This document shows, in pieces, positions 6,763-50,190 of a stretch of 64,000 nucleotides of DNA; positions within the stretch are counted from its first letter, which is position 1, and each line of letters begins with the position of its first letter. The stretch covers positions 4,216,001 to 4,280,000 of the forward strand of contig CM102283.1 of the NCBI GenBank assembly GCA_046563655.1, written 5' to 3'. The DNA is from Yuukianura sp. NJ FZ-2021. Taxonomy: Eukaryota. Under the pieces are notes generated by a model. It had not been told where the DNA came from. It did no database searches and was given only the letters and a program-made list of their open reading frames with translations. The translations under genes and the position numbers were made by a program.

Positions 6763-6771
6763 TTTGAGCTT

Positions 6772-25823: not shown

Positions 25824-26434
25824 ATGGAAGACAAAATGAACCAAATCCTAAAACAACTCAGCATCCTTCCATCGATTGCTGAGACTGTGGCCACCACAAA
25901 TACCCAGCTAACGGTTGTCTCCGATGCGGTCGAACGTCTCCATCAACGCTGCCAGGAACTCACGGATCGCTTAACAGCGCAAGAGCAACATGTAGCGAAA
26001 TTGGAATCGTCAGTGATCACTCTGAAGGATGAAAACCATGACTTAAAGCTCACGGTCGGCCGCCTACAAGCGGAAATGAATAAGAACTTCCTCATATTCC
26101 AAGGAATCCCTGAAGACACGACTAATCTTGAGAACTTCGTCACACAATTTATCGCTGCAAACCTCAATCTGTCACAAATTGAAGTAAAACTAGTACGTCG
26201 AATTGGAAGATCTCCACAAACTCTGAGTTCCCGCCCACGACCAGTATCTGTCAACTTTCCCAGCATCGATCACCGTAATACCGTCTTGAATGCCTCCAAA
26301 AACTGAAGCACACTGAAATCTCAATTTATGCAGATCGTCCCAAGATCCTTAGAGATGAAGCCAAACGAAAATGGGAAATCACGAGCAAATCACACGCACC
26401 GATCAACCAACCAAAACCCCCGAACCAGTATTGA
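25824..26434 (+). pseudogene. LINE ORF1p with a 1-bp frameshift
   Basis: One A fewer than copy 1 in the A-run near 26300; may be a homopolymer sequencing error. Confidence 0.8.
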
Positions 26435-26581
26435 CATCTCGGCAGCCCTCAACAAGCACTCACTCTTCGCAATCCAGTTACTATTTTATACTACAACGTC
26501 AACGGCATTTTAAGTAAGAGATCCGACTTTTTTATAGATTTAATTAAGATCAACCCAACAATCTTTTGTCTCAGTGAAACT

Positions 26582-31075: not shown

Positions 31076-31140
31076 CTTGAGTGATTAGGTTGGGAGGGCG
31101 TGTCACAACACTAGTCACTTTTACCAAAATCCAAAAAACT

Positions 31141-31442
31141 TGTCGGAGTTCTAGCGAACTCCTGGTAATCTGAGGAAGAAAGTGGGCGAAAACGAACAAG
31201 ACGAGCAGTTGGATTTTTTGGGGCTTTCGCCCTTTTATTTAAAAAAGAAAGAAAAGATGTGATGGAGACAGTAGTTTCGATTATTGTTTTGAATTGGAAG
31301 AATCTGACTTTGACAACTAGAAGTTGATAGGAAGGGCGCTAAAGACAGACTGAAATTGGTGGGGCAGGAGAGTCTTGACATGATCTGCTGAGTGACCTTG
31401 GTCACTCGTCAGCTCATGAACACAAAAATGCCTCACCTTGTG
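31141..31442 (-). repeat. BEL/Pao 5' LTR, left part (split by the Polinton)
   Basis: Matches the first 302 bp of the other LTRs. Confidence 0.94.
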
Positions 31443-31720
31443 AGTAATAACCTCAGTTTAGCTAGTAGAACCGAGATGGGAGAATTCCATCTCAGTTCTG
31501 CTGGCTGATTTGTGCTTTATGCTGGAAATCTGAAGTAGGTCAGTGGGAATGAAATGCGTCCCCCACTCCCCGTGTCCCCCCTGAACCTTAGTTTAGCTAG
31601 TAGAACCGAGATGGGAGAATTCCATCTCAGTTCTGCTGGCTGATTTGTGCTTTATGCTGGAAATCTGAAGTAGGTCAGTGGGAATGAAATGCATCACCCA
31701 CTCCCCGTGTCCCCCCCCCT
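31443..31720 (+). repeat. Polinton left TIR core: two tandem units of about 135 bp
   Basis: Units start near 31449 and 31584; reverse-complementary to about 49760-50040; weaker inverted homology continues inward. Confidence 0.92.
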
Positions 31721-32209
31721 GCGCATTGAACAAAACAATGTCACGCTGAAGACTCTACACACAAGAAATGTGAAAAGAGGATTGGAAAAGAGGAATTGAG
31801 TAGTTGCTCTTGAGATGATGCGACATGATGGAAGTTTGTTTAAGAAAATCAAATTTACAAAACTGTAAATTTTTGAATTTAGACTACAAAACAAAAAAAA
31901 ACACACAAAAATATTTTCTGATGTTTGTCGATTCATTGAATGCATAAAACAAATTTGTGAATGTTTTGGATCCAAATTTTGTTTGGTCTTGTTTGGAGGA
32001 GTGTGAGAAAAAGTTTCACATTCTTCACATAAAATTGATGGGTTTCTCGTCACATCTCAAAAGAACAAAAGCAATAAAATTTGACTTGACACAACATGTC
32101 AGAGTTGACACTCTGTAATCCCCTGTTAACTCGATCAATGTCTTTTCAAAATAAGAGTTTGTGGATGTAATTTCGCTTAAGTTCTATCAATCGAATATCA
32201 GTAACAGAA

Positions 32210-32838
32210 ATGGATCACAGTCAGTTGAAACACTGTCATAATTTTGACAGTGTTGTTTTTAAAAATAAGTTACCAGAATCCCATCCAGCTCTTTCTTTTT
32301 TAGAAAAAGAGGGTACTATTTTTGGTAGAAAAGGCGAAGTTTTGGAATTTTCTGAGTCCTCATCAGAGGATTCAGACGGCGATGACGAAGAGAATGGAGG
32401 GCTGTCGCGCCGCTACTGGCGCGAAAAAATTCGAGTGAGACCCCAAGTGGACTTAAGAACGTACAGAATGAGAATAAGGCTTGGAAAGTAAGTGAAAAAC
32501 TTTTTTTCAAATAAAAATGTATGTTTGAAAAGTGAAGTTTTGTAAAAAAACTCTATTTTCAGGCCTTGTGTATTTAGTTTCAAAATCATGACGATGATGA
32601 AGAAGCAAGGTTGGATTCCAGGTCAACGGCTGGGAAAAAACGGGACTGGTCCACTCTATCCAGTAAGTTGTTTAACAAGAAGTTCTGAATATGTTAATAG
32701 TTTTATTTTATATAAGTTAATTAATTTTCATTTGTGATGTAGATGTATGCCGAGGAAAGCCAGGAGCTTTGGGGTCAACACTCGGACGGTCGCGGGTTAG
32801 GAGCGGAAAGTGTGAAAAGTTTTATGCTCGCAAAATAA
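32210..32838 (+). CDS. 3-exon G-patch domain protein, about 157 aa (exons 32210-32487, 32563-32662, 32743-32838)
   Basis: GTAAGT donors, TTTTCAG and TGTAG acceptors, frame preserved. Spliced product contains FKIMTMMKKQGWIPGQRLGKNGTGPLYP...DGRGLG. AATAAA downstream. Confidence 0.82.
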
Positions 32839-33269
32839 TTTTTGTTGGTTAAATAAAAAGTTTGCATTATCAATAAAATTTGATTAATTTGAGAATGAAA
32901 AGTGTTTTGGTTTTGGGAATTCGAGTATAGTCTTTGCAGTTTGGTTAGCTTGAAAGATTAGGAGTTTGAAGGTAATTTCTTTAATTTTTGGTATTTTTAT
33001 GAATTGAAGCGGTTGAGCCGCGGCAGCCTTTTTTACAAATTTCCTTTTACAAAATTTTGATTAGGTTTTTTCATGATTTTGGAATTTTTGTTGCTTGACT
33101 CAAAAAATAGTTGTACGAAGTTGAATGAAGTGTTTTTTTTTTGCTTTGTGAAAGAGAGGAGACGACGAAGCTTTGTGTTTCTTAGGATTTGGAGAAAAAG
33201 GTGGTGGATCTCCAAATCTGTCAAATACTTTGACGGTATTTGATCCACGAATTGTTCTAGTAATTAAAT

Positions 33270-33369
33270 AAGTAACTCAATTGCCCAGTGGTGTAGATGA
33301 TCCATTGAGCAATTGAGTTACTTTTATGCAAATTTTTTTGAAATGTATGCTGCGGGTTCAAATCCCGCA
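33270..33369 (+). other. 22-bp-stem hairpin with A-box-like and B-box-like motifs (candidate small RNA)
   Basis: 33270-33291 pairs with 33302-33323; TGGTGTAGATG at 33289; GGTTCAAATCC at 33355. Confidence 0.35.
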
Positions 33370-33710
33370 CCTTGCAGAATTTTTTAATTTTTTTGTACTA
33401 TTATATAATATGAGAGTTTGGGGAAAGTTTTGAACCGAAAACTAATGTTAAAAATTTCGCTAAAAAATTTAAAACACTTTTATAGTTGGGTTGGAAAACG
33501 CTGACAGTTGTTTTGTTATGTAGCTTTTTTCAGCTTTTGAACACACAAATTTTTCAAAACATGATTCTTTTCAGGGGGAAGTGAGGTGAGTTTAAATGAT
33601 TCCGTAATGGGGTGCGGCTGGAGTTTAGTATAAATTCTTTGAAATTTTGGGAACTTTTGATCAGATATGTGACGCTCATGTAGCTAGATTGAGGTAAATA
33701 CGATTAAGTC

Positions 33711-36700
33711 ATGGCAGGTAATTACTTTTGCTCATTTTGCTCCACATACTTTGATTCACTTGAGCTGTTTGAAAGTCACTGCCGGAGATATCACAACAGG
33801 AATACTGAACAAGCAAGTAAGACTTTGAAAATGTAAATTGTAGCTTTTTTTTTATCTATGTCGAATTGTTTTTTGTTTTAAATTTCAGTGGAACAACCGG
33901 GTTCAAGCAGATCCATGAGGGGTGGACCAGTTCACAATACCAATTTTGAGAACAGCTTAGACAACAGTCAATTCAACGAAGCTTTAACTGATGTTGTTAA
34001 TATTAATAATAACGGTATACTTATTAAATCCTTTCTTTGCTAAAATGTAACTTTATGAATGATTTGGTTTCTCAGAGCTCTTGATGGAGCTTACTGCGGA
34101 TGATCTTGATGTGATTGAGCAAGTACTGCGGGAAGATGACCTTAGCCTTGGTAAGTGAGCTAACATAACCTAGATTTGGTTCAAATTTGTATTTTTTTTC
34201 CAGAACTGTCTCCGCCAAATGATTGGACAGAAAACGTAAATTTTAAGAACCGATTTTGTCCACTGTGTGTTGTTCGTTTCAAAGACGCGGGTGATTTGGA
34301 TTTACATCGGTTTGTCTATCATCCGGAACTTTTTGAGAGAAGTGAAATACCAGTTCAAGTAGGTGGACGATTAAATGCTGCTGAATTTGTTCTCCAGCGT
34401 GGAAGAAGAGGACGTGAAGGTATAGTTCGAGAGTATGTTGCTGACTTGACTAGAAGTATTTATGGTGACATTGAAGGAGTGTTTACGTGTCATGAAGTGA
34501 TTCTATTAGAACTTTTGAGGAACATTTTTTTGGAGATTGGAGCGTATAGAATTTTGGGGACCGTCTACGCTGAAATGACAAGATTAGCCAGAGATGTCGC
34601 TGGTGTCAGTGAAAGTGAAGTTTTCCCATTTCACTCATTTATGCATAGTGTTTTAGATCCTAGTATGGTGTCAACAGTTATTCATCAATTACAGCGCAAA
34701 ATGTCACTATCGTTGGAAGCATTTCTATACAATGGTTCGGGGTGGAGAGTGAAACTGTTTACAAAATTTCAACTACGAATTTTGAAATTTCAAATGGACA
34801 GAGCTTCAAGTTACATTCCTACACCAAAGTCAATTCAAAACAAAAATTGTGTTGTGAATATAAGAAACACTGATGAGTACTGTTTCAAGTATTGTATTTT
34901 GGCGGCATTGTTTCCTCTTTACCAGAATCCAAACATTAACTGGAAAAGATTCACAGATCCGAGAGAGTATCTTAAATACAAATGCAGTGTTGACTTTGAC
35001 TGTATCAACTTTCCAATGTCAATTTGTCAGATGGATAAATTCTTGCACTTTAACTCCAGTTTAGCAGTAAATGTTTATGGTTATGAGGAATTGGATGAAC
35101 TGGACTCTAACATTTCAAAAAAGAAGGTCACCGTTTTTCCATTGTATGTGTGTAAGGAAAGAAGAAAGTTTAACATTGACTTGCTCTTGTTACTAGATGG
35201 TTTGAAAGCTCACTTCACTTTATTAAAGAAAAGTGATTTAAATCCTTCGGAAGGTCTTTCTAGACTTTTGGGAAAGGAAGAACGGAATTATGCAAAATAC
35301 ATCTGCAGATTCTGTTTACTCTATTGGAAAACAAAGAAGAAGCTCGAGAATCATGAGAAATACTGTGCCGCTTTAGAACTACAAAGAGTTTCGTTACCAA
35401 ATGAAAAGTATTTCAATTTCACAAGAATTAAGAGAACACTGCCTGTACCAGTTGTCGGTTATTTGGATTTTGAAGCAATTTTATTTCCACAAGCAGCAAG
35501 TGACCTAACGTCAAAGATTGGTGATGTGTACAATGAGCACATTGCTTGTGGGTGGTCACTCATATTGATTGGACCTCTCGGTGAAGCACTGGAAGGAATT
35601 AAAATTTTTCAAGGTCATGACGCGCAGCATACTGCTCTTGATGAGTTAATCAATACGGCTTCAAAATATTTTCCACTTCTAAAAGTTGATGTTGGGCGGG
35701 ATGCAAGATGGAGTACTACAGACTTTTATAACTTGCTTCATGCCTCAACACACTGTATACATTGTGGTATGGAGGTTCCTAACCGCGAAAAAGTGATTGA
35801 TCATTGTCATTATACCGGAGCTATTCGTGGAATGAGTTGTAGCAAGTGTAACTTAAATTGTGAGACAGTTAATTTCATTCCAATCATATGTCACGGTTTT
35901 CGTCACTACGACTCAAAATTTATTGTACAAGCTCTTAAAAGTACAAAACTGAAAAAAGTGGAAGTGCTACCTCACTCGATTGAAAAGTTTACTTCAATGC
36001 AATTGACAACGTTAGAAGGATATGTACTTAAGTTCATGGATTCTTTTCAGTTTATAAGTTCAAGTTTAGCCGATCAAGTCAAAGTTTTGGCAAAGGATAA
36101 CTTTGATAAGTTTCCCATAACAAAAGCCACATTTGATAAGAATTATAAAAATATTAATTTGTTGTTTCGAAAAGGAGTATATCCTTATACATATTTTGAC
36201 AATTTTGAAAAGTTTGATGAGACAAGTTTACCGCCGAAATGTCTTTGGGTGAGTGACTTAACAGGGAAAGGAATTAGTGATGAAGACTTTGAACATGCAC
36301 AACGTGTTTGGAAAGAATTTGGTTGTAAAACTTTGAGGGATTACCACAACCTATACGTATCTCTAGATGTCACACTTCTTGCTGACTGTTTTCAAAACTT
36401 TAGGCAAAGATTTTTAGCAGATTTCCGTTTAGACCCTGCTCACTATTACACTTTGCCTGGTATAGCATATGATGCTGCTATACTATGTGGCAGTGTTGGT
36501 TTTGAATATTTGCAAGATTTGGATCAATATACGTTTATTGAGAGAGGAATTAGGGGTGGTATTTGTAGCGTTGGCTTGCGCTATGCAAAAGCAAACAACA
36601 AATTCTTAGGTTCATCCTATGACCCTACGCTACCAACAAGTTATTTATGTTTGTGGGATGCAAACGTGCTGTACGCCCACCAACTTCGAAATTTTGTACC

Positions 36701-37995
36701 ATGGAAAGACTTCCGGTGGGATTTATGCTTGTGGCAAAGGTCAGTGAAGCTGGAAGATGTCATAAAGATGATTCGGGGTATGGACGACGAAGCAGAAGAA
36801 GGTTTAATTTTGGAAGTAGATTTGATGTATCCAAAGGAGCTGCATGATTTGCACAACGATTACCCACTTGCAGTTGAGCGGCGATCTATTCAGTTTTCAG
36901 ATTTGTCATCCTACACACATCATGTTATGTATAACGCAGGAGCGAAGTCTTCAACTCAAAAAAAGACAAAGTTGGTGGGAAGTTTAGAAGATAAAAAGAA
37001 TTATGTTGTACATTACAGATTACTAAAACTTTTTCTAGAACTTGGTTTGAAGTTGACAAAAGTACACTGTGCTTTGAGGTTCAGACAAGCACCATTGTTC
37101 CGTGTATACTGTGAGTTGTGTATAAAAAGGCGCCAAGGGTCAACAAATGAAGTAGACAAGAAAGCCTACAAAGCTTTGGGTAACATTTTAGTTGGAAAAA
37201 CCTTTCAAAATGTTAGAAAATATAAGCGAATTAATGTTGCCCTATCAAAAGAGAAGATTTTGGAGTATGGTAAAAAGCCTACGGTGGAAGATATTAGAAT
37301 AATACATGATGACTGTGTTCTATTTCAAATGAAAAAGTTGTCTGTGTGTTTAAATAAGCCAATATTTGTAGGGCTTACAGTGTTAGACGATAGTAAAAAA
37401 CAAATGTATGAAGTATACTATAAGAAACTGAAACCACGTTATGGTAGTAATATGCGTCTAATATTTACAGATACTGATAGTTTTATGTTATATATTAAGA
37501 CAGAAGATGTTTATGCAGATATTTATGCTAGTGTAAGGCAAGACGAAGGGCTATTTGATACGTCAAATTTTAAGAAAAGTGATAAGCTACTAGGACACTT
37601 GTACAGTGACAAGCATGCTGGAGAAGGGGGATACTACAAAGATGAGAGTCCAGAGTGCATAATTTCTGAAGTTGTGGCTCTAAAACCAAAACTATATTCT
37701 TTGAAGCTGGTGACACGTGACGGAGAGGAGAGAGAAATTAAAAAAGCAAAAGGTACTGTGACTGCAGTGCTGGAGTCTCAGTTAAGCTTCAAAGATTATA
37801 AAGATGTATTAGAGGAAGGTAGCTGTAGATTTGTATCAATGAATACTATTCGTAGTTTAAATCAAACTGTACACAACAACAATGAAAAAGCAGAGCTTGT
37901 CTGCGGTAGATGACAAGGCCTTTTATTTGACACCAATTGAATCCCTTAGATTTGGACATTATAAGATTAAAGAGTTTCAAGATAGTGTTGTGTAG
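33711..37995 (+). CDS. polB: Protein-primed family B DNA polymerase, spliced (exons 33711-33816, 33889-34014, 34076-34150, 34204-end), frameshift near 37873
   Basis: YLDFE, DHCH..G..RG..C..CN, KGVYPY, RGG, WDANVLY, K...N...GK, FTDTDS. The conserved DDK...GHY tail continues in another frame to TAG at 37995. The main track ORF is 34176-37913; the upstream exons are inferred. Confidence 0.93.
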
Positions 37996-38083
37996 AAAGA
38001 AAAAAAAAACCAGTTTAATAAAAATTTAATAAATCATGTTTTGAATATGTTTCACTTCATTTGTGTACAGAAGTTCGGATAGG

Positions 38084-38728
38084 ATGGAGTTCAGGCCTGA
38101 ATTGATTCATCCGTTTGTGATGGTGTTGAGTGGACCTACACAAAGTGGAAAGAGTACACTGATTAGACAATTGATTGAAAGGAGAGATGAAGTAATTGAA
38201 CCAAAAATTAGGCGTATTATTTATTGCTACAGTGAGGATGAGCCTAGTTTTGCGGAGACATTGAGATTACATCATAAAGTTGAATTTAAGCAAGGGATGG
38301 AGAATTTGGATGTGGCAGAAGGAAATCAAGTGGAAACAATGGTGATTTTAGATGACTTCATGGAGGTTATTGCCAACTCGAAAGAAGTCTGTGCCATGGC
38401 CACCAGAGGCTCTCATCATCGCTCTCTTAGTTTAATTATAACAGTGCAAAATTTTTTTTATAAGGGATGTAGAAACCTAACTTTAAATAGTAAATATGTA
38501 GTTTTGTTTCGAAATCCCAGGGATACAACAATTATAAAATACTTGGCAAGGCAAATGAATGGCGGAAAGTCAAACGGGTTGTTGGAAGAAGCATATGAAG
38601 ACGCAACAAAAAACAAGCCCAATAGTTATTTGTTTATTGATTTATCTCAAAATCAGGATGACAATTTTCGTTTTAGATCAAATGTGTTTCCCGACTCATC
38701 CTCTTGTATAGTATATATGAAGAGATAA
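38084..38728 (+). CDS. A32-like genome packaging ATPase
   Basis: Walker A GPTQSGKST, Walker B ILDD, RGSHHR, TVQN, LFRNPRD, YLFIDL. Confidence 0.93.
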   Translation: MEFRPELIHPFVMVLSGPTQSGKSTLIRQLIERRDEVIEPKIRRIIYCYSEDEPSFAETLRLHHKVEFKQGMENLDVAEGNQVETMVILDDFMEVIANSKEVCAMATRGSHHRSLSLIITVQNFFYKGCRNLTLNSKYVVLFRNPRDTTIIKYLARQMNGGKSNGLLEEAYEDATKNKPNSYLFIDLSQNQDDNFRFRSNVFPDSSSCIVYMKR

Positions 38729-38744
38729 TAATAAAAGCTTACAG

Positions 38745-39302
38745 TTACAATCTTTTGAGTTTCAAAAGTCCTTCCATCAAACAGTCGTATAACTCAACGG
38801 GCAAAGCGACTCCGACACTTTGATCAAATTGATTCTTAATGTGCAAGTGTGTTGTTCCAGAAAATCCGTTTTCATTTCCAAAAAAAAGTTGCCAACCGTC
38901 TTCCAAGTTAATTTGAGGTGGAGGAAATGGTTTAGGAAATTCTTTCCGGACTTCAACGACCATAGAAAGGGATGTAACTTTCTTTGCACGTTGATTAGGT
39001 GTAGATTGCCGTCTAATTTTTTTTCCACCTCCAGTTCTGCGACAAGTTTGCTCAGATTCAGGCTCAGTTGTAGGTTGAGGAGTTGGGTGGATGACAGTGT
39101 TAATATATGTATCCATTTCGGTAGCAAATGTAGAAGTAGTTGGAGAAGTAGCTTGTTTGTCCATAGTACGTTGCCTTCCAAGTTTATTTAAGTTACAATT
39201 GCAGGAAAAAGTTTTACACACGGTTATCGTAGTTGTATTATTTCTTTTGAAGAAAAAATTGGATAATGTTTGCCAAATAGAACAAAAACTACAAGAGCTC
39301 AT
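38745..39302 (-). CDS. Polinton hypothetical protein with a possibly PC4-like C-terminus (likely start 39164)
   Basis: Low-complexity N-terminus then FSGTTHLHIK...GVALPVELYDCL; resemblance by eye only. Confidence 0.5.
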   Translation of the reverse strand: MSSCSFCSIWQTLSNFFFKRNNTTTITVCKTFSCNCNLNKLGRQRTMDKQATSPTTSTFATEMDTYINTVIHPTPQPTTEPESEQTCRRTGGGKKIRRQSTPNQRAKKVTSLSMVVEVRKEFPKPFPPPQINLEDGWQLFFGNENGFSGTTHLHIKNQFDQSVGVALPVELYDCLMEGLLKLKRL

Positions 39303-39315
39303 TCCTCGATCAAGT

Positions 39316-40301
39316 TCAAACTAGAAATGGTGAAACTTTTAAAAGTTCTTCCCTGTAAAATATTCCAAAAATTGGAACCCCTTTTTGTCTTGGATTTGAA
39401 AGGTGATTGGATTTGTATTATAAATATTTGAAATTGTAAAAATTTCATTTTTCCAAGACTGGGCGTAGCCTTTAGCAAAAGTGGATTTAACTTTACTGAT
39501 AAGTACTTTATCACCAACGTGAAGCAGTTTTGACTTTGGAAATTTGAGTCTAGATGTATATTTTGAGTACAAATTTAAGAAAACTTGAGTTTTTGTTTCG
39601 TTGTTGACTTGATTTGGAGTCATTTTTATTGAGGAATGGTAGGAATTGTTATAAGCCTCAACAAGATTTTGCAAAATATGAGTGTATTTTGTACTATTTG
39701 AATGAGTCATGTACTTTGCAATCCTATTCATGAGAGTTCTGTTAAACCGTTCAACTATTACAGCTTTAAGTTCAGAACGGGTATTAAACAAGTTTACTCC
39801 TACTTTTTTAAGCATAGTTTTGACATTCTTATTAATAAACTCAGATCCCTGATCGCACTGCAACTGCTTAGGCACGCCTCTTTTTTGAAATATTTTTTGT
39901 AAAGTTGTAGCTAAAAGTTTTCCAGTTTTATTTTTGAGTGGAATAGCGTCTGCAACTTTTGAAAAAGCATCAATGCAGGTAGCCAAATATCTATATCCTC
40001 CATTTGTGTCTTTGTACTTGGAAAGGTCAACCAAATCAATACAATACTGATACTTCATTGAGGGAACAAACACTTTTCGCCGAGGATAACGTTTTCTAGC
40101 TTGAACGTGTAAATTATATGCCGGTAGAGATGACAGAGCGTTTCCCACAACCTTAGAAAGTGTGGATGTGGAGAGTTTATTTTCTTTAGATTTAAGTAGA
40201 GTTTTGAGAATTTGGTGTTGTCCAGTAAAAGCAAAACTATTTTTAGGGTTGACATACTGCTGCCTAATTTTTTTTTCAAGTTTGAGGTGACGTCGCGGCA
40301 T
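39316..40301 (-). CDS. int: Retroviral-like DDE (rve) integrase of the Polinton, C-terminal frameshift near 39380
   Basis: IDLVDL, CIDAFSK, QCDQGSEF, KAVIVERFNRTL, YNNSYHSSIKMTP. GIFYREEL lies in a shifted frame (track ORF 39339-40343). Confidence 0.93.
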
Positions 40302-40466
40302 GATGACAAGTAGTTGAGGGGGAGTTGGGGAACTTAAGTTCAAATGTCAAAAGGGGGCGTTGAAAGGTGACTGAACAAATGTTTTGACTATGTAAATTCT
40401 TATAAAGGATTTAGTAATTTGGAAAAGTTTGTTCATTTGAAAAGTTGACATGCCGCTGGGAACATC

Positions 40467-40799
40467 ATGTCTCTAAGATTACGAAAAAATTGTGACTTTT
40501 TGAAATATTTGTCAACTTGTGCAAAAGAACAACGATTAGGGTTAATAAAAAACGCAACAAAGCCTGAAATTGAGTCTATTTGTGAATGCATTTTAAATAT
40601 TTATAAAAAAAACTTTGGAGTGAGTAGTAAAACAATTTCAAAATTAAAACCGCATAAGAAGACAATTCTTTCAATTGTAAAACGAAGAAAAACTTCATTA
40701 TCAAGAAAAAAGAAGCTTTTAACACAACGCGGTGGAGCTATCCTTCCAATTCTCCTTGCATCAATAATTCCACCAGTACTTTCCAGAATTTTAAAATAA
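40467..40799 (+). CDS. Small basic Polinton protein with QRGG and a hydrophobic tail (putative virion protein)
   Basis: ICECILNI and LTQRGGAILPILLASII; lies in the structural gene block. Confidence 0.75.
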   Translation: MSLRLRKNCDFLKYLSTCAKEQRLGLIKNATKPEIESICECILNIYKKNFGVSSKTISKLKPHKKTILSIVKRRKTSLSRKKKLLTQRGGAILPILLASIIPPVLSRILK

Positions 40800-40860
40800 A
40801 GCAGTGAGAAGGGGAATAGGTATCGGGTAGGAGGAGGAGGAGGAGGGAGGATTTGACAGA

Positions 40861-41955
40861 ATGAAGAGGTTGAGATTAGTTTCGGAAGCTGAATATAAAA
40901 AAAAGTTTGACCCTACATTTGAAGTAAGCAGCAGCGGTAACAGTGGAGTTGATTTGACAAAAAGTTTAGATTCAAAGTTGACTCCTACTACTAGTACTTC
41001 TAGTAAAGGGGAACAGTTACAATTTGGTAAACAACTAATTTTGAGTGCAAAGGATATTCCTGATGACATCAAGGCTTTACTTTATCACGACTTTGCGAAA
41101 CGGTTACATGAGAGACGTAAAATTTTAGCCAACCAACCTATTCTTGTTAAAAATGTGGACGGAAAAAAAGGACGAGCGACGAGTGCAATTTTAAACAGTA
41201 ATAATTCTGGAAACTCTTCTATGATTTTGGTTACTGAACCCTACATTTTAAAACAAATTCCAAAAGTGAAAGAAGGAAAAAAATTGTTTAAACATATGAA
41301 AAACTGTAACATTTTTTGGAATGATAAGTTTGAAATTGTTATTGACGAAAACCGAATTCCATTTTCAAATATTATAAATGTCATTTCATATTACTTGGAA
41401 AATTCAAAACGAAGAGAACAGTTTCAACCACCTCCAGGTTGGTATGAAGTACATCAGCACCTTCAATCCGCATTAGTTTCCCCCCCACACGCCATAAGAA
41501 AACTACTAAAGCAATTTAAATCCATACATTATGGTTCCCTAAACATGTCTACTCCAACTAAATCTACTCCAGCGCTTAATTTAGAAAAAACATCTCCAGC
41601 TTCGTCTAGTATCATTTCATTTGAACCGGGTTCAAATTATTCTACAGCTGATTTAAATAGTAGTACAGCAATAGAAACATTACCAAATGACTCTCAGCTT
41701 TTATTGGATGAAGACCAAGAAGTTGGAAGTGGAGGAGTGGAAAGAAGTGGTGTAGTAGATAGACAAGACGAAGAGGGTGTGGAATTTCCTTCAAACAAAC
41801 GTACTACTCCTATGCTAGCACGTTTGAGAAAAAGAAAAACTCCACCTTCAACTCCAAAAAAAGTTAAAGGAAAAGTAGTAAAAGGGAAACAAGTTGGAAA
41901 AGGTTTCAAGCATCGTCCTTCTCCTCCTCCCTTTTTAAATTGGGAAACATACTAA
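40861..41955 (+). CDS. Polinton hypothetical protein, 364 aa (putative core protein)
   Basis: Long ORF with WNDKFEI..IPFSNI..PPPGW core, basic tail, QVGKG, ending WETY. Confidence 0.75.
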   Translation: MKRLRLVSEAEYKKKFDPTFEVSSSGNSGVDLTKSLDSKLTPTTSTSSKGEQLQFGKQLILSAKDIPDDIKALLYHDFAKRLHERRKILANQPILVKNVDGKKGRATSAILNSNNSGNSSMILVTEPYILKQIPKVKEGKKLFKHMKNCNIFWNDKFEIVIDENRIPFSNIINVISYYLENSKRREQFQPPPGWYEVHQHLQSALVSPPHAIRKLLKQFKSIHYGSLNMSTPTKSTPALNLEKTSPASSSIISFEPGSNYSTADLNSSTAIETLPNDSQLLLDEDQEVGSGGVERSGVVDRQDEEGVEFPSNKRTTPMLARLRKRKTPPSTPKKVKGKVVKGKQVGKGFKHRPSPPPFLNWETY

Positions 41956-42049
41956 GAAGAAGAAAAAAAGAGTGAGAAAGAAGGGGAGGCCCCCCCTGGG
42001 GGACAGATCGTGCAACTTTTACTAAAAAAGGGGGGATCCCTTACCGTTT

Positions 42050-42260
42050 TCCTTGGGATTTTTTTCCCAGCGTGTTCACAGTGGATTTAAATCCAGCGTT
42101 CCTCTGGATTTTTTTTTCCAGCGTGTCCACAGTGGATTTAATCCTGCGTTTCTCTTGGATTCTTTTCCAGCGTGTCCACAGTGGATTAAATCCAGCGTTC
42201 CTCGTGGGATTTAAATTCCTGCCTTAACATTGAGTTTTTAAATCCCTGCGTTAACTTTGC
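42050..42260. repeat. About 50-bp tandem repeat (3 copies plus degenerate ends) in the Polinton central intergenic region
   Basis: CCAGCGTGTCCACAGTGGATTTAAATCCAGCGTTCCTC-like units near 42068, 42118 and 42167. Confidence 0.8.
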
Positions 42261-42303
42261 CTTGTTTTTTTTTAAGTGTGTTGTCCATTTTTTAAAAAAA
42301 GTT

Positions 42304-43185
42304 ATGAGTTTAATTGGAAACGAAACTTCATTTTATGTTACTTTACAATCTAATGCTTCCATGGACATTTTCCCTGGAAATAAAATTTCCGATTTTAAAA
42401 ATCGGCTTGGCTCTCCAATTTCTCTTCCACCAGGTCAATGGCAAGTAGCTTTAACAAGTATTAGTTACACATACGGTAGCCCATTCATAAGGAAAGGAGA
42501 TGTTTTATTTGAGAAGAAGAAGAAGAGTGAAGCATCTACTTTGGAAACACCTACTTCAAAAATTATATATTTACATAAAGAAAAACCTTTAGAAACAACA
42601 CATGTGGAAATGAAGGAGGTTGTAGTACCAACAACTGTTCTCATACCACCCCCACCTCCAATCTCATCTTACAAAGATATAACTACAGAATCTGAACTAC
42701 TTCATGTACTTCATAAACTAATTGAGGGAAGTAATTTTGACATTGATGGAAACACATTTTCCTATACTATTCCTCTTAATGAACAAGAAACATTGGAATT
42801 TTCTCCAAAATTATGTGATATTCTTGGCTTAAGTTCTAATCAACTTACCTACTCTCATCAAAATTCAAATGGAAAAAACATTTTTAGCGGGAAAGGAACA
42901 ATGCCAATGTTTTTGAATTCTGGAAATACTAAATTATTCATATATTGTCCTTTAATTCGTCCACAATTTGTTGGAGACGTGATGGTTCCATGCCTCCGTG
43001 TGATTGATTATGATGGAATTACCGGGAAACAGAAAACACATGAATTTATACATCAATTCTTTTATGATATTGCTGTGTCAGAATTTGAAGTAATACACAT
43101 ATATATACGCAATGAAGTTTCTGAACCAGTTGCATTTGAATTTGGTAACGTGACTGTTACACTACGATTTCGAGAAAAACGTTAG
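42304..43185 (+). CDS. Minor capsid (penton, PX) protein
   Basis: FYVTLQSNAS..FPGNKISDF..L..PI.L..QWQVAL N-terminus; LFIYC.LI.PQFVGD...LR and VTVTLRFR C-terminus. Confidence 0.87.
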   Translation: MSLIGNETSFYVTLQSNASMDIFPGNKISDFKNRLGSPISLPPGQWQVALTSISYTYGSPFIRKGDVLFEKKKKSEASTLETPTSKIIYLHKEKPLETTHVEMKEVVVPTTVLIPPPPPISSYKDITTESELLHVLHKLIEGSNFDIDGNTFSYTIPLNEQETLEFSPKLCDILGLSSNQLTYSHQNSNGKNIFSGKGTMPMFLNSGNTKLFIYCPLIRPQFVGDVMVPCLRVIDYDGITGKQKTHEFIHQFFYDIAVSEFEVIHIYIRNEVSEPVAFEFGNVTVTLRFREKR

Positions 43186-43198
43186 GATTTTTTGAAAA

Positions 43199-43687
43199 AT
43201 GAAACATTCAGGATTTAACTGTCGAGTGGATGAGCCGAATCAATTCTTTAAATTAAATTATTATACTCCACAATTTGGATACGGTACAGTAGAACCAAGA
43301 TTATACTTTTCTGGAGTTAGGAGACAAAAGGGAGCTGGAATTGGAGGAGTATTTGGGACTTTAGCTAGACGTTTGTTACCATTTGTTAAACAATTTATAC
43401 TTCCACATGCTGCAAAAGCATTAAAAGGCATTGCTATTGATGCGATTGATGGAAACCAAAATATGAAACAGTCTCTTAAAAGTCATGGTCTTCAGGCACT
43501 TAAGGCTGCAGGGAGGGACGTTCTTAGTCAGAGTGGATTTGGAAGACGAAGACGAAACAAGTCTAAGACAAAGAAGAAGAGTAGGCGTACTTTGAAACGA
43601 GTAGGTCATAAACCCACCAAAAGGAGAAATAAAATCAACAGAAGAAGAAGAAAAAACAATTCAAAAAAAATTAGGTATATTTTTTGA
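43199..43687 (+). CDS. Basic core/DNA-condensing-type protein with QxGxG motifs
   Basis: QFGYG, QKGAGIGG, QSGFG and an Arg/Lys-rich C-terminus. Confidence 0.78.
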   Translation: MKHSGFNCRVDEPNQFFKLNYYTPQFGYGTVEPRLYFSGVRRQKGAGIGGVFGTLARRLLPFVKQFILPHAAKALKGIAIDAIDGNQNMKQSLKSHGLQALKAAGRDVLSQSGFGRRRRNKSKTKKKSRRTLKRVGHKPTKRRNKINRRRRKNNSKKIRYIF

Positions 43688-43697
43688 AAAAAAAAAA

Positions 43698-45041
43698 ATG
43701 CCAAAAGTCAAAGCTTCAAAATTAAAAAGTTCATCCCATGCTGCTCCCTACACTGTCATCCGATCAGAAACACAACTTTTTGAAGAACCTGTCTATGATG
43801 TTTCACTTTCTTCAACTTCAATTTCTGAGTATCATTCAATTAATTCAATCACTGATTCTCAATCTCCACTTGAATTTTTTATTCAATCAAATCAAGTGGA
43901 ATTTTTAGACCTTGCTGAAACTAAACTATATATTAAGGCACGTATTGTTAAAACTGGCAATTCAACTTTAGAGGAAGCGGATATTGTTATACCAACAAAC
44001 AATTTTCTTCATAGTTTGTTTTCACAATGTTCAATTTATCTAAATGAAGTCCAAATCACACCCGCAAATAATTCATATGCTTACAGAGCCTACATTGAAA
44101 CCTTATTAGCATATGGAAAAGAATTTAAAAAATCTCAAAGTCAATGTGCATTTTTCTACAAAGATAAAGATCCTAAAAATACGGATGTAAAATTAGAAGG
44201 CGGTTTGAAAACTCGTTACGATTTGTCAAAATCTTCGAATGTAATTGAATGTTTGGGACGACCATTCACAGATATCTGTATGCAAAATAAGTATTTAGTA
44301 CCTGGAATTGATGTTCGAGTTTCGTTTCTCCGCTCTACTCCAGAATTTTCACTCATCTCCACTGTAGCTAATGCAAAATATCAAGTGCAAATTTTGGAAA
44401 GTAAATTAATAATACAAAAACAAAGCCTTCTTCCATCTCTACTCACTTCTACTCTAAAAACTTGGGAACAAGGAAGACCAGTCACTTATCCTCTGAAACG
44501 TGTTGAAGTCAAAACTTATACAATTTCTCCTGGAACTATAAATAGTGTGAATGAAAACTTGTTAACTGGAATTGTACCAGATAGAATAATTTTGGGACTC
44601 ATTCCTTCTGAAAATTTTATTGGCACTTATGCTACAAATCCTTTTGCTTTTGATCATTTTGGACTAAATTATATTCATGTTTGTGTAAATGGAGATTCTG
44701 GTTCAAGCCTTCCAGTCCATTGTGATTTTGAAGAGAATCAGTACGTACAATTGTACAGTAACCTTTTCTATGGACTTGGAATTTCAAATGATGACGTTGG
44801 AATTGATTTAAATTGGAGTGAATTTAAATCTAATCCACTATTCGTTTACAACTTGAGACATATAAAAGACGGATTTCCAGCTCCAAAATATGGAAATGTT
44901 AAAATTGATTTAAAGTTTAAGGAAGGTTTGAAAAAAGCAATTACTGTCGTTGTCTATTCTGAACTACAGTCAGTCTTGCATATCGATAGTTCCAAATCAG
45001 TTTACTTTAGAGACTACAGCGGATCAACTATTGATTCATGA
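43698..45041 (+). CDS. Major capsid protein (double jelly-roll, PY)
   Basis: 447 aa; SPLEF, NNFLHSLFSQ, YAYRAYIETLL, Q.KYLVPG, NPFAFDHF motifs; adjacent to the protease. Confidence 0.92.
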   Translation: MPKVKASKLKSSSHAAPYTVIRSETQLFEEPVYDVSLSSTSISEYHSINSITDSQSPLEFFIQSNQVEFLDLAETKLYIKARIVKTGNSTLEEADIVIPTNNFLHSLFSQCSIYLNEVQITPANNSYAYRAYIETLLAYGKEFKKSQSQCAFFYKDKDPKNTDVKLEGGLKTRYDLSKSSNVIECLGRPFTDICMQNKYLVPGIDVRVSFLRSTPEFSLISTVANAKYQVQILESKLIIQKQSLLPSLLTSTLKTWEQGRPVTYPLKRVEVKTYTISPGTINSVNENLLTGIVPDRIILGLIPSENFIGTYATNPFAFDHFGLNYIHVCVNGDSGSSLPVHCDFEENQYVQLYSNLFYGLGISNDDVGIDLNWSEFKSNPLFVYNLRHIKDGFPAPKYGNVKIDLKFKEGLKKAITVVVYSELQSVLHIDSSKSVYFRDYSGSTIDS

Positions 45042-45559
45042 ATACTAATCAAATTTTTTCTTATCTTAACTCTTTTTTGTCAAATAAAAATTGTTCATTC
45101 GATGTAATACCATGTGACCTTTTAGACACTTATTCAATTAGAAAGTATCCCTTACTCCTTTGTTGTAACACGGACGAATCAAATTCTCCTGGACAACATT
45201 GGATTTCAATTTTTAGAAAGTCATCTCAAACTCCGCTAATATTTGTTGATTCTTATGGAATGGGAGCCAACTTTTACAACAAATCTTTTCAAAACTTCGC
45301 CTCTCGTCTCAATACCTACTTTATAGAAAATACACAACGGCTCCAAAGTTTTAACAGTACAGTTTGTGGAGAATATTCAATTTACTTTCTATTTAAACTT
45401 TATTCTTCTTGCTGTTTAATGTCAATTTATTGTAACTTTAATCGTAATACTGTTTTTAATGACTCTAAAGTCAAATACTTTGTTAGAAAAAAACTTGCAT
45501 GTAGAAAATTCAATTCAAATTTTAAAGCTATTCAATGTTGTCAACCTTTTTTGAAATAA
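45038..45559 (+). CDS. Adenain-like cysteine maturation protease
   Basis: NTD....PGQHW, FVDSYG, LQ..NSTVCGEY (His-Asp-Cys triad and Gln); ATGA overlap with the MCP stop. Confidence 0.92.
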   Translation: MNTNQIFSYLNSFLSNKNCSFDVIPCDLLDTYSIRKYPLLLCCNTDESNSPGQHWISIFRKSSQTPLIFVDSYGMGANFYNKSFQNFASRLNTYFIENTQRLQSFNSTVCGEYSIYFLFKLYSSCCLMSIYCNFNRNTVFNDSKVKYFVRKKLACRKFNSNFKAIQCCQPFLK

Positions 45560-45681
45560 AAAACAAAAACAACAAAAATCCAAATCTCTTTTTTTCTTCA
45601 ATGCTTCAAATGCCCCCCCTAAACAAGAGGCTTTTATTTAGTTCTTTTTTTCAAAAAAAAACCAAAAAAGATTAAAATGTT

Positions 45682-46132
45682 TTAGTCGTGTGGGATTCCA
45701 ACTAGTTCAGCTCGAAAAGCTTCCAGTTCGTTCAAACAATTTTGAAGGCACTCAGCCAATTTTGTAACCTCTCCCCTATTTGATCGTAGATAAATGTTGT
45801 TGAGACGGCGCATTACATAGGGAATGTTCCGAACTTCAAAATTAGTCGTCTTTCCAAGCCGCTTCATGTAGACCCAAGTAAATGGATTTCCACGGTACAT
45901 GACCTCACGACTCCACAAGTTTAACTTCCTTTCCTCATCGTCCCACACCGTCAAATCCTCAACCTCTTCAGTCCCTCCTGTAGTAGCAGCAGCAGCAGCA
46001 GCGTTTTCCTTTCCTTCTCCTAACATAGAAACAAAATCAGCTATTAAAAAACATCACAAATACTTTCGAAAAGTTATTTTTTTCCTTACCTCCTGAAGGC
46101 AATTCGGGCGAATTTGGTAGAGCCTGAGCCAT
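45682..46132 (-). CDS. Hypothetical 2-exon protein (exons 46132-46090, 46040-45682)
   Basis: A 49-bp GTAAGG...TAG intron joins MAQALPNSPELPSG in frame to the 114-aa track ORF; TATAAAA upstream. Confidence 0.6.
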
Positions 46133-46329
46133 GGTTAACCGGTTGATGCAAAAGCAGAAAGTGTCGATAGCAGAATGATAAGCTTTATGAACAAAATTTC
46201 CTTCTTTTATACCAAAAAATTCCCACTTCAGCATCACTCCCAAACTCAAACCCCCTCCTCCAAAACCAAATTTTCTTTTTTTGCTGAGGAACATTTGTTC
46301 TAGAACCTGTTAGCTATACTTTTATTCAA

Positions 46330-47925
46330 TCAGTATTCATCCTCTGGGACATGCGGAAGTGGATTGAACATTTGACGATAATCACTTTCAATACCTAACA
46401 ATTCAGAAATAAAATTTTGTTTCACCAAATTATTTTTAAATTCAAATTCCAGTTCAAATCCGTTCAGGACTTCGACTCCCATCCGATCCTCCTCCATATC
46501 TTCAACATCGTGCCAAATTCTTAGCCTCCGTGCACAGCATAAAATACGCCTCCAACACTCCTTGTCAACCACGTAACTTTCCCGAGTACGTTGACTTACC
46601 CCACTAATTAACAATACCTTCAGTTGGTCAACTTCAGTTAAAATATGAATGAAGACTTCGTGATCGATTCCACAATTGAAATCAATTGGACTTCCAATTC
46701 GATCTAATTTTAAATAGTACAAATATTTAAGTCCTGAAAGGCTCTGCATTAAATCCCTTCGAGCAATACTACAACCTTTCAATTCTAAAAACTGAAGAGA
46801 TTCAGGAAGTGTAGGCGTAAATGTTATCCGGTTATACGGTTCAAACCCCCCTTCACCTAATCTAAACCTACTAAGTACATGAGGCAAAACTTCTAAGGTT
46901 AACTCTCTCAAGTTTATCATTTGAGAGAGTTCTACAATTCTAAAGGGTCCCCTCGGCGTAATTGTAATATTACTTAGATCTAATACCTTCAAAGAAGTTA
47001 GGCTTCTTTCTACAATAGTAGTTACACGATTTAAACTTAGTACATCTAATTCTATTCTAATAGTTTCAAAAGAATTTGGAATTCTGCAAAGGTTCCACAA
47101 TATAGACACCATACTTGGATGAAAATAGTACAGAGGGGCACATACTACGGAAATATTTTTCAAATTTGGAAAACTACAATTAATTGTACCATCAAAGGTA
47201 CAAGGAGGACAGTAAAATGGAGGAGGTTCACACTCGACCTCAATTGTAACTAAAGTCGTACGATTATTACTAATAAACTCAAAAAAGTTACGAATACATT
47301 TTTCGGAAAACGGGTGGTTGATGGAAAATCGCTGTAGATTTGGAAAACAAATACTTTTACCCAGAAACTTAGCAACAGGGCCACCTACAAGTTGGTTATG
47401 TCTTGTGTCAATAAAGTTAGACTTAAATTCTAAACTAGTTAACTTATTTAAACCAAAGCACATTCGGTCCAAAATTCCCTGGTCCAACTCTTCAACAAAC
47501 ATTAGAAATAAAAATTTAACTGAATTTACCATTGAACATATTTCTAAAGCTTCTCTAATACAATCTTGGGACACTGGTCCTGAAAATAAAATACTTTTTA
47601 CGAGATGTGGATACATCAATGGCGGTAAAAGTGGCTTCTCTGTTGAAGACAACTGCAGAAATTTGATTTTTCTGAATTTGAAAAAATCAAGCGTCGACGG
47701 GTCTGGGTGAAACATTGTCCACATTCCCACAGCGTCTATTGCGTCTTGCCACGTTTTTGAAACGGACCTCATTGTTTTAAGATCCTCATTTTCCAAAAAC
47801 GACAGAATACCTTCACAAACCTTCATCAACAAAAACAAACAAGAATAAAAGTATCCTTAACTGAAATAGGATTATGCTCTTTTTCAAAAGAAATGTACCT
47901 CCAATGGCAAATCTCCCAAACTCAT
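46330..47925 (-). CDS. F-box plus leucine-rich-repeat protein, 2 exons (47925-47899, 47820-46330)
   Basis: Splicing a 78-bp GT-AG intron gives MSLGDLPLEVCEGILSFLENEDLKTMRSVSKTW (F-box), followed by LxxLxL repeats (LKVLDLS, LRELTLE, LQFLELK, LYYLKLD). Confidence 0.85.
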
Positions 47926-48637
47926 TTTATTGTTTAAAAGAAATTTTGTTAACTCGAAGATGCAGTCAAAAAACAAAATGTGAAAACACACTGAGTTCAA
48001 ATCCCAAACAGGTAGCTCCTTTTATTCTGCAAACAGACTCAGCTCAAATCCCAATTTAATTCAAAGAAACAACCAAAGAAAAAGTTTCTGCCTAAATCCA
48101 AAAACTGATATCAATTTTCAATAAAAACTAAGTCTTCGTATGGAGATAATGGTGGGGAGTCCAGACTCATTAGGGCGGGGGGAGCGTCATTAGTAGACTT
48201 TGTGTCTTAAACTCAATTTTTTTCAAGAAAAATATGTTACAAACGCTTTTTCAAAACCCAACGTGTTTTCTGTTTTTAGTGTTTTTAATATAGAAAAAAT
48301 AACATTTACTTAGATTTTTTAAAGAAAGAGCAAATTTTCATTTTGGAATTCAATTCTTGAAGTACAAATCAATTCCGCAAAACTTTGAGCTAGGGGGCAG
48401 AGATTATTTGAATTAGTCGGTCGTTAATTAGTTTTGGGAGCATCAAAACCTAGATCCATTATTTTTCCGAATGTCCAATTTTTTCTGGAAAGGGAAGGGG
48501 GGGGGGGCAAAAGATCATCGATGATTATTTACAAATTTTGAAAAACTTTGTCAACATGTTTCTAAATGTTTCTAAACGTTGAACGTTTCTTTTTGATTAA
48601 AAAATAATGCATTTTACTAATTCTCAAATCCGTTGAA

Positions 48638-49196
48638 CTAATTGCAGTGGTAACCTTCTACTTTTTGTGTCCTCTTGCTACCAAACCCTCTCCTAGCTTG
48701 GAAATCATCCAAATCTTCTACCACCTACAATTGCAATTTTGAAAATGTAGTGTGATATTTGAAGCCACAAAATTACAAAAAACAAACGTAATCACAGAAT
48801 ATTACATACCGCAGAAAGAATCCCATTTCCATTGGTTCCAAGTCGTCTCCCCGGTTTCCAACCCATTCTCTTCATTATTTTTAGTACAACTTTACTAATA
48901 CAGGCAGGACTAGAAAATTTTATTCAAATTAAAAATTAGTTCACATTGAACTTGAAAAAGAATTTCAATTTTGAAAGAACATTTAAGTTTAAAATTATAG
49001 GAATGACTTACATGTTTAACACACTAAAAAAACTAAGCACAAATGAGTTGTAATTTGTGGCAGCTACACTGTCTTCCGATTCCTTAATGAAAACTGTGAA
49101 GTTTTTCTCCAAAAAATCATACACTTTGTGACCCTTCGGGAAACGTTTTTCAAAATTTTCTAGATTAAAATTGTGACACACTGACAAATTTTCCAT
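48638..49196 (-). CDS. 3-exon G-patch domain protein, about 123 aa (exons 49196-49012, 48909-48810, 48724-48638)
   Basis: GT-AG introns in frame; product contains VLKIMKRMGWKPGRRLGTNGNGILSAV...RRGFG; paralog of 32210-32838. Confidence 0.82.
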
Positions 49197-49759
49197 TTTT
49201 TCAGGGCTGAACTTTTGTTCTAGACACCCCTAGTTAGAAACTGATTTTACAAATCTATTTAGAACTGCAACTTTGTCTTCAGAACTGATTTGTATAGACA
49301 AAGTAGCTACATAAAATAATTTTTTGCAAATCCATTGATCGAGTTTGCAAACATCAAACAGTGTCAACTTTGACATTCTATGTCAAGTCGAGACAAAAGA
49401 TTTATTGCTTTTCCCATTTGAAGGGAACCCCATTAATTTAATGTGGAGATTCTCTCACTTCTTCTCACAGTTCTCAAATCTCACACATCTAATACCAAGT
49501 CAAAAAAATCAGTTCCAAACCATACATGTATTGTTTCATATACAAAATAAATCGACATACGTCAGAACTTATTTCTAGTTTTTCAAAAAAGTCAAACATT
49601 GTATTTTCATCAATACATCCTTTTTCAAAAAACTTCTGTCATTTCAATTGGAAAGGGTGGGGGGGGGACAATTAGGGGTGTCATTTCATCTCATGAGCAA
49701 ATCCTCTCTTCACATTTCTTGTGTGTAGAGTCTTCAGCTAGAGATTGTTTTGGTCCAAG

Positions 49760-50040
49760 TGGAGGGAGGGGGATGGGGAGTGGGGGTTGCATGTCATTCC
49801 CACTGACCCACTTCAGATTTCCAGCATAAAGCACGAATCAGCCAGCAGAACTGAGATGGAATTCTCCCATCTCGGTTCTACTAGCTAAACTAAGGTTCAG
49901 GGGGGGGACACGGGGAGTGGGGGATGCATTTCATTCCCACCGACCTACTTCAGATTTCCAGCATAAAACACAAAGCAGCCAGCAGAACTGAGATGGAATT
50001 CTCCCATCTCGGTTCTACTAGCTAAACTGAGGTTATTACT
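49760..50040 (-). repeat. Polinton right TIR core
   Basis: Reverse complement of the left end with scattered mismatches. Confidence 0.92.
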
Positions 50041-50046
50041 CTTGTG

Positions 50047-50190
50047 ACATGTATCATGTCACAAGGCATGACACTAAGACAGGCTTTTTAGCCTGTAAGA
50101 CTCGGAGAAAGAAAGAATTTTGATTTAATTAGTGGAGGGGTTGACCAAGGTCAAGCGGCTATTGGCTTGACCTTGTCAATTCCTCCAACA
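50047..50190 (-). repeat. BEL/Pao 5' LTR, right part
   Basis: Last 144 bp of the LTR (302+144=446), followed by TSD CACCG. Confidence 0.94.

Follow-up and report, generated by a model that had tools for sequence, protein, structure and literature searches.

Cellular G-patch proteins that act as helicase cofactors include TFIP11/STIP-1, SUGP1, NKRF and Spp2, and linear DNA viruses such as poxviruses carry genes that are duplicated in inverted terminal repeats. According to the main sections of PMC11459146, the G-patch acts on DEAH helicases as an activator that braces two of their domains, the winged helix and RecA2, and the G-patch of M-PMV (Mason-Pfizer monkey virus) recruits DHX15 productively by the same brace mode; aromatic and glycine substitutions at the equivalents of NKRF W564, G567 and G571 lowered the amount of DHX15 in M-PMV particles. 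This betaretroviral motif, which pulls DHX15 into virions (PMC11459146, published in 2024), is the only viral example of a G-patch found in our literature search. Adintoviruses, as described in the section of PMC8502044 on their accessory genes, keep host-manipulating genes near the ends of their genomes, for example "Oncoid" upstream of the DNA polymerase B gene (PolB). The locus considered here is a 64,000-nucleotide stretch (the window) of the genome of the eukaryote Yuukianura sp. NJ FZ-2021 (assembly GCA_046563655.1, contig CM102283.1, positions 4,216,001 to 4,280,000), which contains a Polinton/Maverick element with a predicted G-patch gene close to each of its two ends: gene A on the forward strand and gene B on the reverse strand.

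It appears from the sequence that genes A and B are diverged paralogues of one accessory gene and that they might make spliced helicase-adaptor proteins; taken as a whole, we give this reading about as much credence as doubt. In the following, the evidence for the structure, the domain and the kinship of the two genes is set out together with the alternatives on which it bears, and the locus is then compared with the systems named above.

Structure and G-patch identity of the two genes

The initial annotation had placed two inward-facing three-exon genes, each with a 100-bp middle exon and with intron phases of 2 and then 0, at the positions listed in Table 1, and this structure was recovered. 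Gene A consists of exons of 278, 100 and 96 nucleotides separated by introns of 75 and 80 nucleotides, and gene B of exons of 185, 100 and 87 nucleotides with introns of 102 and 85 nucleotides (the last exon including the stop codon in both cases); the predicted proteins comprise 157 and 123 amino acids, respectively. All four predicted introns begin with GT and end with AG, the donor being GTAAGT in three of them and GTATGT in the fourth, and when six combinations of boundaries were tried for gene B, an open frame and GT donors coincided in one only. The G+C content of the exons of both genes (32-50%) is higher than that of their introns (20-27%), and AATAAA occurs 16 and 36 nucleotides beyond the stop codon of gene A. 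The list of open reading frames (ORFs) was correctly said to reduce gene A to its first exon, which appears there as an ORF of 93 amino acids (32210-32491). Thus, we infer that both genes would be spliced from three exons.

Identification of the domain is based on Pfam family PF01585, the curated gathering cut-off of which is 22 bits. When exon 2 was translated alone, rather than as part of the whole spliced protein, the score was 27.9 bits for gene A (E 2.2e-06, profile positions 6-28 of 45) and 33.9 bits for gene B (E 3e-08, profile positions 2-29 of 45), so that the G-patch assignment made initially stands for each gene at Pfam's own threshold. Exon 3 alone gave no Pfam match, and none was obtained outside the G-patch in either protein. 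Across all six translated frames of the 64-kb window, the strict G-patch core pattern occurs exactly twice, both times at exon 2. The core G-aromatic-x2-G-x2-aliphatic-G is present in both proteins, as judged from the pattern and from the exon-2 alignment, and it takes in the brace-helix region, the aromatic residue and GxxLG; the same alignment indicates that the residues equivalent to NKRF W564, G567 and G571 are kept in A and B, the equivalence being taken from the consensus given in the main sections of PMC11459146. Among solved chains, those closest in sequence derive from the G-patch of a TFIP11 homologue (8ro0_TF, E 0.014), of SUGP1 (8ejm_B, E 0.016) and of TFIP11 (E 0.22); these matches are weak, as would be expected, because the query is only 33 residues long.

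In the consensus of PMC11459146 (main sections), the full-length G-patch closes with GhG 10-16 residues past the core. The initial annotation had claimed that a complete G-patch is assembled only after splicing, and this holds for the closing GhG, which lies in exon 3 and has the right spacing only when the exons are joined, but not for the core, which is contained wholly within exon 2. Only the spliced forms match the full consensus including GhG, with a span of 46 amino acids in A and 41 in B, and reading exon 2 through into intron 2 gave no match to the consensus with GhG. These observations bear on the possibility that the introns are retained, in which case only the first-exon ORFs (93 and 62 amino acids) would be made and the G-patch exons would be relics. 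The in-frame ATGs in exon 2 make other products conceivable; however, relics would not keep Pfam-grade scores, a length of 100 nucleotides, GT-AG borders and matching phases in two far-diverged copies, and we regard retention as highly improbable.

Paralogy, proposed role and distribution of the gene pair

The N-terminal motif that had been described as common to both proteins is made up of the invariant residues C9, H10, N11, F12, F17, P22, H25, F30, L31, E32 and K33 (numbering of protein A). The spliced proteins match each other in BLASTP with an E value of 1.6e-14 and 30% identity over 120 residues (their identity as a whole is about 30-35%), and the observed score was reached by none of 2000 shuffles, both for the whole protein and for its first 60 residues. 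When 110 aligned codons are compared, the proportion of differences is 0.81 at synonymous sites (pS), which is saturated, and 0.46 at non-synonymous sites (pN), although the latter is biased downwards by the protein-guided alignment, which covers 110 of the 157 and 123 residues and leaves out 47 residues of A. Comparison of this element with L001, one of the related loci discussed below, provides a yardstick: pS and pN are 0.82 and 0.28 for the capsid gene and 0.81 and 0.37 for the protease gene. By this measure, the distance between A and B is about that between orthologues of neighbouring lineages, and constraint is only somewhat below that on the protease. The earlier remark that the proteins are strongly diverged and yet have intact frames is thus best understood as a sign of diverged paralogues under constraint.

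The regions upstream of the two genes point in the same direction, as their promoters are homologous. The likeness of the DNA outside the coding exons, which is 93% in the terminal inverted repeat (TIR), drops to 67% in the 256 columns aligned upstream of the genes, and homology extends over about 250-400 bp. The 30-bp block (Table 1) fits one degenerate pattern without mismatch, and in 64 kb this pattern occurs only at these two sites, against an expected number of 0. Because the proteins and the promoters are homologous and pS is saturated but pN is not, A and B are old paralogues under constraint. The simplest history would be a once-longer terminal repeat carrying one gene, of which only the outer 341 bp are still kept alike.

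Relatives of the N-terminal module were sought in several ways. A word-indexed search with exon 1 of A yielded no candidate, and exon 1 of A and of B gave no usable match in the ESM Atlas. A HMMER search of 1.84 billion representatives with a profile of exon 1 from A and B returned 2 matches, both rejected as spurious (Ig-like/FN3-like repeats matched in 5-7 short stretches). When the 43-amino-acid stop-to-stop frame around exon 2 of B was searched against longer proteins, 6 candidates were obtained, and none of them scored. Reading the motif as a C2H2 zinc finger was likewise rejected, given the misfit in spacing and the single Cys seen when it was set by eye against the CxxC...H motifs of the polymerase. 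The fold predicted for exon 1 of A from an alignment of two rows has a mean pLDDT (predicted local distance difference test) of 42.2 and is unusable.

The linkers between this module and the G-patch differ, being acidic and then Arg-rich in A and short in B; the Arg-rich stretch of protein A shows net charges of +4 and +5 within residues 61-100, and B has no such stretch. This unlikeness suggests that the two proteins have divided roles. An Arg-rich stretch would also suit a G-patch that acts independently of helicases, on nucleic acid or in replication or packaging of the element at its genome ends, for example together with the protein-primed polymerase; the genes adjoin both termini, and gene A lies directly upstream of the polymerase gene on the same strand. 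Nonetheless, B does without the stretch, a terminal position would be expected equally from an old duplication of the terminal repeat, and the functions ascribed to the G-patch in the main sections of PMC11459146 are all helicase-linked. Such a helicase-independent role therefore seems improbable to us.

According to the adaptor reading, one gene would lie just inside each TIR and read inwards from its own homologous promoter, transcription would take place in the host nucleus, and the three exons would then be spliced. In the product, an orphan N-terminal module spanning about 40 residues would be joined to a G-patch by a variable linker. Encoded by exons 2 and 3, the G-patch would bind a host DEAH-box helicase of the DHX15/Prp43 or DHX16/Prp2 type by bracing its winged-helix and RecA2 domains, and the N-terminal module would choose where the helicase is taken, making the product a virus-encoded helicase adaptor, as is the M-PMV G-patch. 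By analogy with the latter and its partner DHX15, a DEAH helicase is the most likely target of free-standing A and B, and it is reasonable to assume that their products redirect it. We infer expression of the genes, binding of the helicase and the direction of the effect, be it recruitment and activation or sequestration. A wider proposal would be that an animal Polinton lineage possesses two sub-functionalised G-patch adaptors that are expressed in the manner of early genes from mirror-image promoters, that capture for the virus a DHX15/Prp43-type helicase, which serves the host in the spliceosome and in ribosome biogenesis, independently of betaretroviruses and that bear a new N-terminal targeting domain; this is put forward tentatively, and the balance inclines against it.

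Several points weigh against an adaptor role, some of them in the genes themselves and others in their distribution. The seven-glycine consensus is incomplete, the first glycine being replaced by I in A and V in B and the fourth by R in both; because these canonical positions are substituted, G-patch activity cannot be assumed. Neither AATAAA nor ATTAAA occurs within 200 nucleotides past the stop codon of gene B, and the downward bias of pN mentioned above belongs here as well. The Arg at the fourth position is of interest in another respect: as a departure conserved in both copies, it could alter the brace, and A and B might be decoys that bind a host DEAH helicase unproductively and withdraw it from its G-patch partners in the cell or from antiviral RNA-sensing. 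The evidence from the PF01585 scores, the key residues and the consensus is common to decoy and adaptor and does not separate an activator from an inhibitor, and protein B, which is hardly more than the N-terminal module and the G-patch, would be adequate as a decoy. However, the N-terminal module is conserved, which hints at a second interaction and is easier to reconcile with an adaptor than with a mere competitor, and the recruitment of DHX15 by the M-PMV G-patch is a productive one (PMC11459146, main sections). We consider a decoy unlikely.

The related loci sampled comprise 80 metagenome loci and 1 viral contig found by a capsid alignment search, 366,764 bases in all, whereas scanning viral contigs with a single integrase or capsid protein gave no match. 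None of these 81 loci contains a credible match to gene A or B by tblastn, patterns or hidden Markov models (HMMs). The best tblastn match of the six exon peptides (L045, E 0.009, 28% over 53 amino acids) was judged to be due to chance. The strict core pattern has no match in the related loci; the loose core pattern has 7 matches in 6 of them, all rejected as low-complexity or as lying within other genes, and the 2 matches to CHNF, which are beside stop codons, were rejected too. With exon HMMs, the best scores in the related loci were 8.4 bits (E 1.3) for exon 2 and 11.4 bits (E 0.21) for exon 1, and among viral contigs neither the back-translated G-patch core nor the 30-bp promoter block was matched as a DNA pattern. 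For L001 and L003, in which the capsid is 59% identical and the order integrase, o110, o364, penton, o162, capsid, protease and o114 is common, the place of gene B is taken by small Cys-rich ORFs, three or four in number, whose matches to zinc ribbons stay below threshold. As no match was found in the related loci, including these two, the gene would seem to be dispensable for the family. This absence is informative mainly for L001 and L003, since most of the other loci stop short of the element ends; because most loci are short and none of them includes the stretch that lies upstream of the polymerase in a close relative, the gene pair is better described as not universal than as unique.

In this sense, the impression of the initial annotation that this is not a standard Polinton gene was borne out, both by the 81 related loci and by the literature. 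Our literature search found no paper that joins the G-patch with Polintons, Mavericks or adintoviruses, the only co-occurrence of the terms G-patch and Maverick being in an unrelated cattle study; PMC8502044, in the section that it devotes to other genes, mentions PLA2X, gasdermin, cupiennin, Adintoc, Oncoid, Bcl2 and IAP and no G-patch. Such a distribution could also be expected of passenger DNA, i.e., pieces of a host G-patch gene captured into the once-longer terminal repeat, useless to the element and perhaps not expressed. The terminal regions of Polintons are a variable cargo space in which the closest relatives have other small genes, and the introns would fit capture from genomic DNA. 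However, both genes have retained open frames, splice sites, the exon length, the phases, the N-terminal motif and a G-patch of Pfam grade despite saturated synonymous sites. Their pN lies far under saturation and near the value for the protease of the element, conserved blocks persist in the promoters, and the search of 1.84 billion representatives yielded no cellular protein containing the N-terminal module. Passenger DNA is, in our view, an improbable explanation.

The Polinton and its surroundings

The gene pair had been located inside a Polinton, and this is confirmed by TIRs, a 6-bp target-site duplication (TSD), AG/CT ends and genes for an rve integrase, a packaging ATPase, a capsid protein and a protease; a putative gene for a protein-primed DNA polymerase B (pPolB) is present as well. 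Kapitonov and Jurka are said to have defined Polintons in 2006 by TIRs, a 6-bp target-site duplication and 5'-AG/TC-3' ends, and TIRs, a 6-bp TSD and AG end dinucleotides are all present here. The TSD is a perfect 6-bp CTTGTG (31437-31442 and 50041-50046), and the element is intact. Its 12 outermost bases at one end are the exact reverse complement of those at the other. The TIRs measure 341 bp and are 93.0% alike over 344 alignment columns (aligned with 50041-49700), each consisting of approximately two tandem units of 135-137 bp.

Table 1. Position of the G-patch genes, the other parts of the Polinton and its flanks in the window.
Feature	Position	Strand	Remarks
Gene A upstream/promoter region	31909..32209	+	30-bp block 32083-32112, 13-bp block 32128-32140, then A/T-rich TATA-like stretch
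Gene A exon 1	32210..32487	+	Orphan N-terminal module with start codon, followed by an acidic Ser/Asp/Glu run and an Arg-rich run; phase 2, donor GTAAGT
Gene A exon 2	32563..32662	+	100 nucleotides, G-patch core; acceptor TTTTCAG, donor GTAAGT, phase 0
Gene A exon 3	32743..32838	+	Closing GhG, C-terminal tail, stop TAA
Gene B upstream/promoter region	49197..49574	-	30-bp block 49389-49360, 13-bp block 49345-49333, then A/T-rich stretch
Gene B exon 1	49012..49196	-	Orphan N-terminal module with start codon; phase 2, donor GTAAGT
Gene B exon 2	48810..48909	-	100 nucleotides, G-patch core; donor GTATGT, phase 0
Gene B exon 3	48638..48724	-	Closing GhG of G-patch; stop TAG
Whole Polinton/Maverick	31443..50040		18,598 bp; 5'-AG...CT-3'; 6-bp TSD CTTGTG; TIRs; core genes
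Left TIR	31443..31783	+	Alignment with right end; about two 135-bp tandem units
Right TIR	49700..50040	-	Alignment with left end; tandem units
Putative protein-primed DNA polymerase B (pPolB)	33711..37913	+	Four-exon model 33711-33816, 33889-34014, 34076-34150, 34204-37913
Packaging ATPase	38084..38728	+	AAA_14 above cut-off; Adeno_IVa2 (20.5 bits vs. 21) and Pox_A32 (18.9 vs. 22.8) both just below
rve integrase	39339..40301	-	PF00665 54.7 bits, cut-off 32.6
Major capsid protein	43698..45041	+	151 protein relatives at E<=1e-5, best 61% identity
Maturation protease	45038..45559	+	Role from position after capsid gene and conservation; no Pfam match
F-box/LRR accessory gene	46330..47826	-	Pfam F-box 22.8 bits, cut-off 20.5
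350-bp satellite arrays	1-3765, 10664-20326, 50192-54901, 56160-57211, 61113-62515		Flanks of Polinton
BEL/Pao retrotransposon ORFs	4441-8793, 21002-25857; gag at 29888-31084		Left flank
LINE (long interspersed nuclear element) endonuclease/reverse transcriptase ORFs	9372-10697, 26435-29761		Left flank

The polymerase model becomes open over 1338 amino acids from the ATG at 33711 once three short GT-AG introns, all of phase 1, are removed. Because the polymerase frame, too, opens only in this way, introns are not foreign to the element. The sole Pfam match in the polymerase ORF 34176-37913 is an Endonuclease_7-like domain (PF02945; residues 523-560, 29.5 bits against a cut-off of 23.6), and its polymerase motifs were taken as PolB motifs by eye only. 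By tblastn, the polymerase has 27% matches with E values of 1e-8 to 1e-10 in the capsid-bearing loci L053, L055 and L079. C2H2-like CxxC...H motifs are found in exon 1 of pPolB and at the start of its exon 4.

Those relatives of the capsid protein that bear a name are called "F54H12.2-like" and come from spiders, wasps and a limpet, with about 31-35% identity. The penton and protease genes were assigned from position and conservation, without a profile; the order penton, o162, major capsid protein and protease is kept in most of the 80 metagenome loci. An imperfect tandem repeat of 49/100 bp occupies positions 42048-42252, between ORF o364 and the penton gene. The F-box/LRR (leucine-rich repeat) gene adjoins gene B on the same strand and is conserved in the lineage, at 2799-4232 (-) in L003 and at 5636-7063 (-) in L001; the former homologue was identified by tblastn (E 1.6e-08) and the latter through its likeness to the L003 copy. 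Judging from its domains, its product could be a virus-encoded adaptor for the host SCF ubiquitin ligase. In the same two relatives, Cys-rich ORFs with the arrangement CxxC...CxxC...H form arrays at 4409-5615 (-) in L003 and 7318-8713 (-) in L001, which recall the paired-CxxC "Oncoid" genes of adintoviruses.

The Polinton is surrounded by a nest of transposable elements in a 350-bp satellite (positions 1-31442 and 50041-64000 of the window); these surroundings, with their BEL/Pao and LINE pieces, mark the host as an animal. Beside the TSD, the right flank contains a short palindrome at 50041-50100 (minus strand: ...CTTGTGACATG ATAC ATGTCACAAG...), and the insertion site of the Polinton may lie in hairpin-forming sequence.

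Comparison with known systems

If the adaptor reading is correct, the G-patch/DEAH helicase system would also be a target of DNA elements of animals; according to the wider proposal, the pair would be the first counterpart in a DNA virus of the hijacking of DHX15 by the betaretroviral G-patch. The pair would also provide two natural minimal G-patch adaptors, of 123 and 157 amino acids, with an orphan targeting module, and would form a new class among the accessory genes near the ends of Polintons and adintoviruses, which are still poorly understood. Moreover, intron-bearing genes of this kind, among them apparently the polymerase of this element with its three introns, escape ORF-based annotation of such elements.

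The closest functional precedent is the M-PMV G-patch, which is likewise virus-encoded and whose DHX15-critical residues, one aromatic and two glycines according to the main sections of PMC11459146, also occur in A and B. However, the M-PMV motif is a segment of the polyprotein of an RNA virus, whereas A and B would be free-standing small proteins of a DNA element, each with an orphan N-terminal module, and would come from predicted spliced genes that form a diverged pair at the two ends of a genome. With cellular G-patch cofactors, the proteins have in common the PF01585 domain, their nearest solved sequences being the G-patches of the TFIP11 family and SUGP1, and the fact that the G-patch occurs once and within seemingly disordered sequence (pLDDT 42 for exon 1 of A). 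They are unlike these cofactors in that they are very small, are devoid of the usual companion domains, have the first and fourth glycines replaced and are encoded on a mobile element.

In element type, in the placing of small accessory genes, both upstream of PolB and close to the ends, and in a core gene order shared with L001 and L003, the locus resembles Polintons and adintoviruses in general. Nonetheless, the two genes are not of the Oncoid type, which is defined in the section of PMC8502044 on such genes by LxCxE with a CK2 site, CR1 and paired CxxC: LxCxE, CR1 and CxxC are all absent from both proteins, and CK2-type sites number four in A and zero in B. The mirror-image arrangement of a homologous gene pair beside the two termini is reminiscent of the terminal duplications of poxviruses; here, however, the homogeneous repeat ends at 341 bp, and A and B lie beyond it and have diverged strongly in protein sequence. 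Thus, the element, the domain and the viral precedent (in another class of virus) are all known, whereas their combination and arrangement in this Polinton are new.

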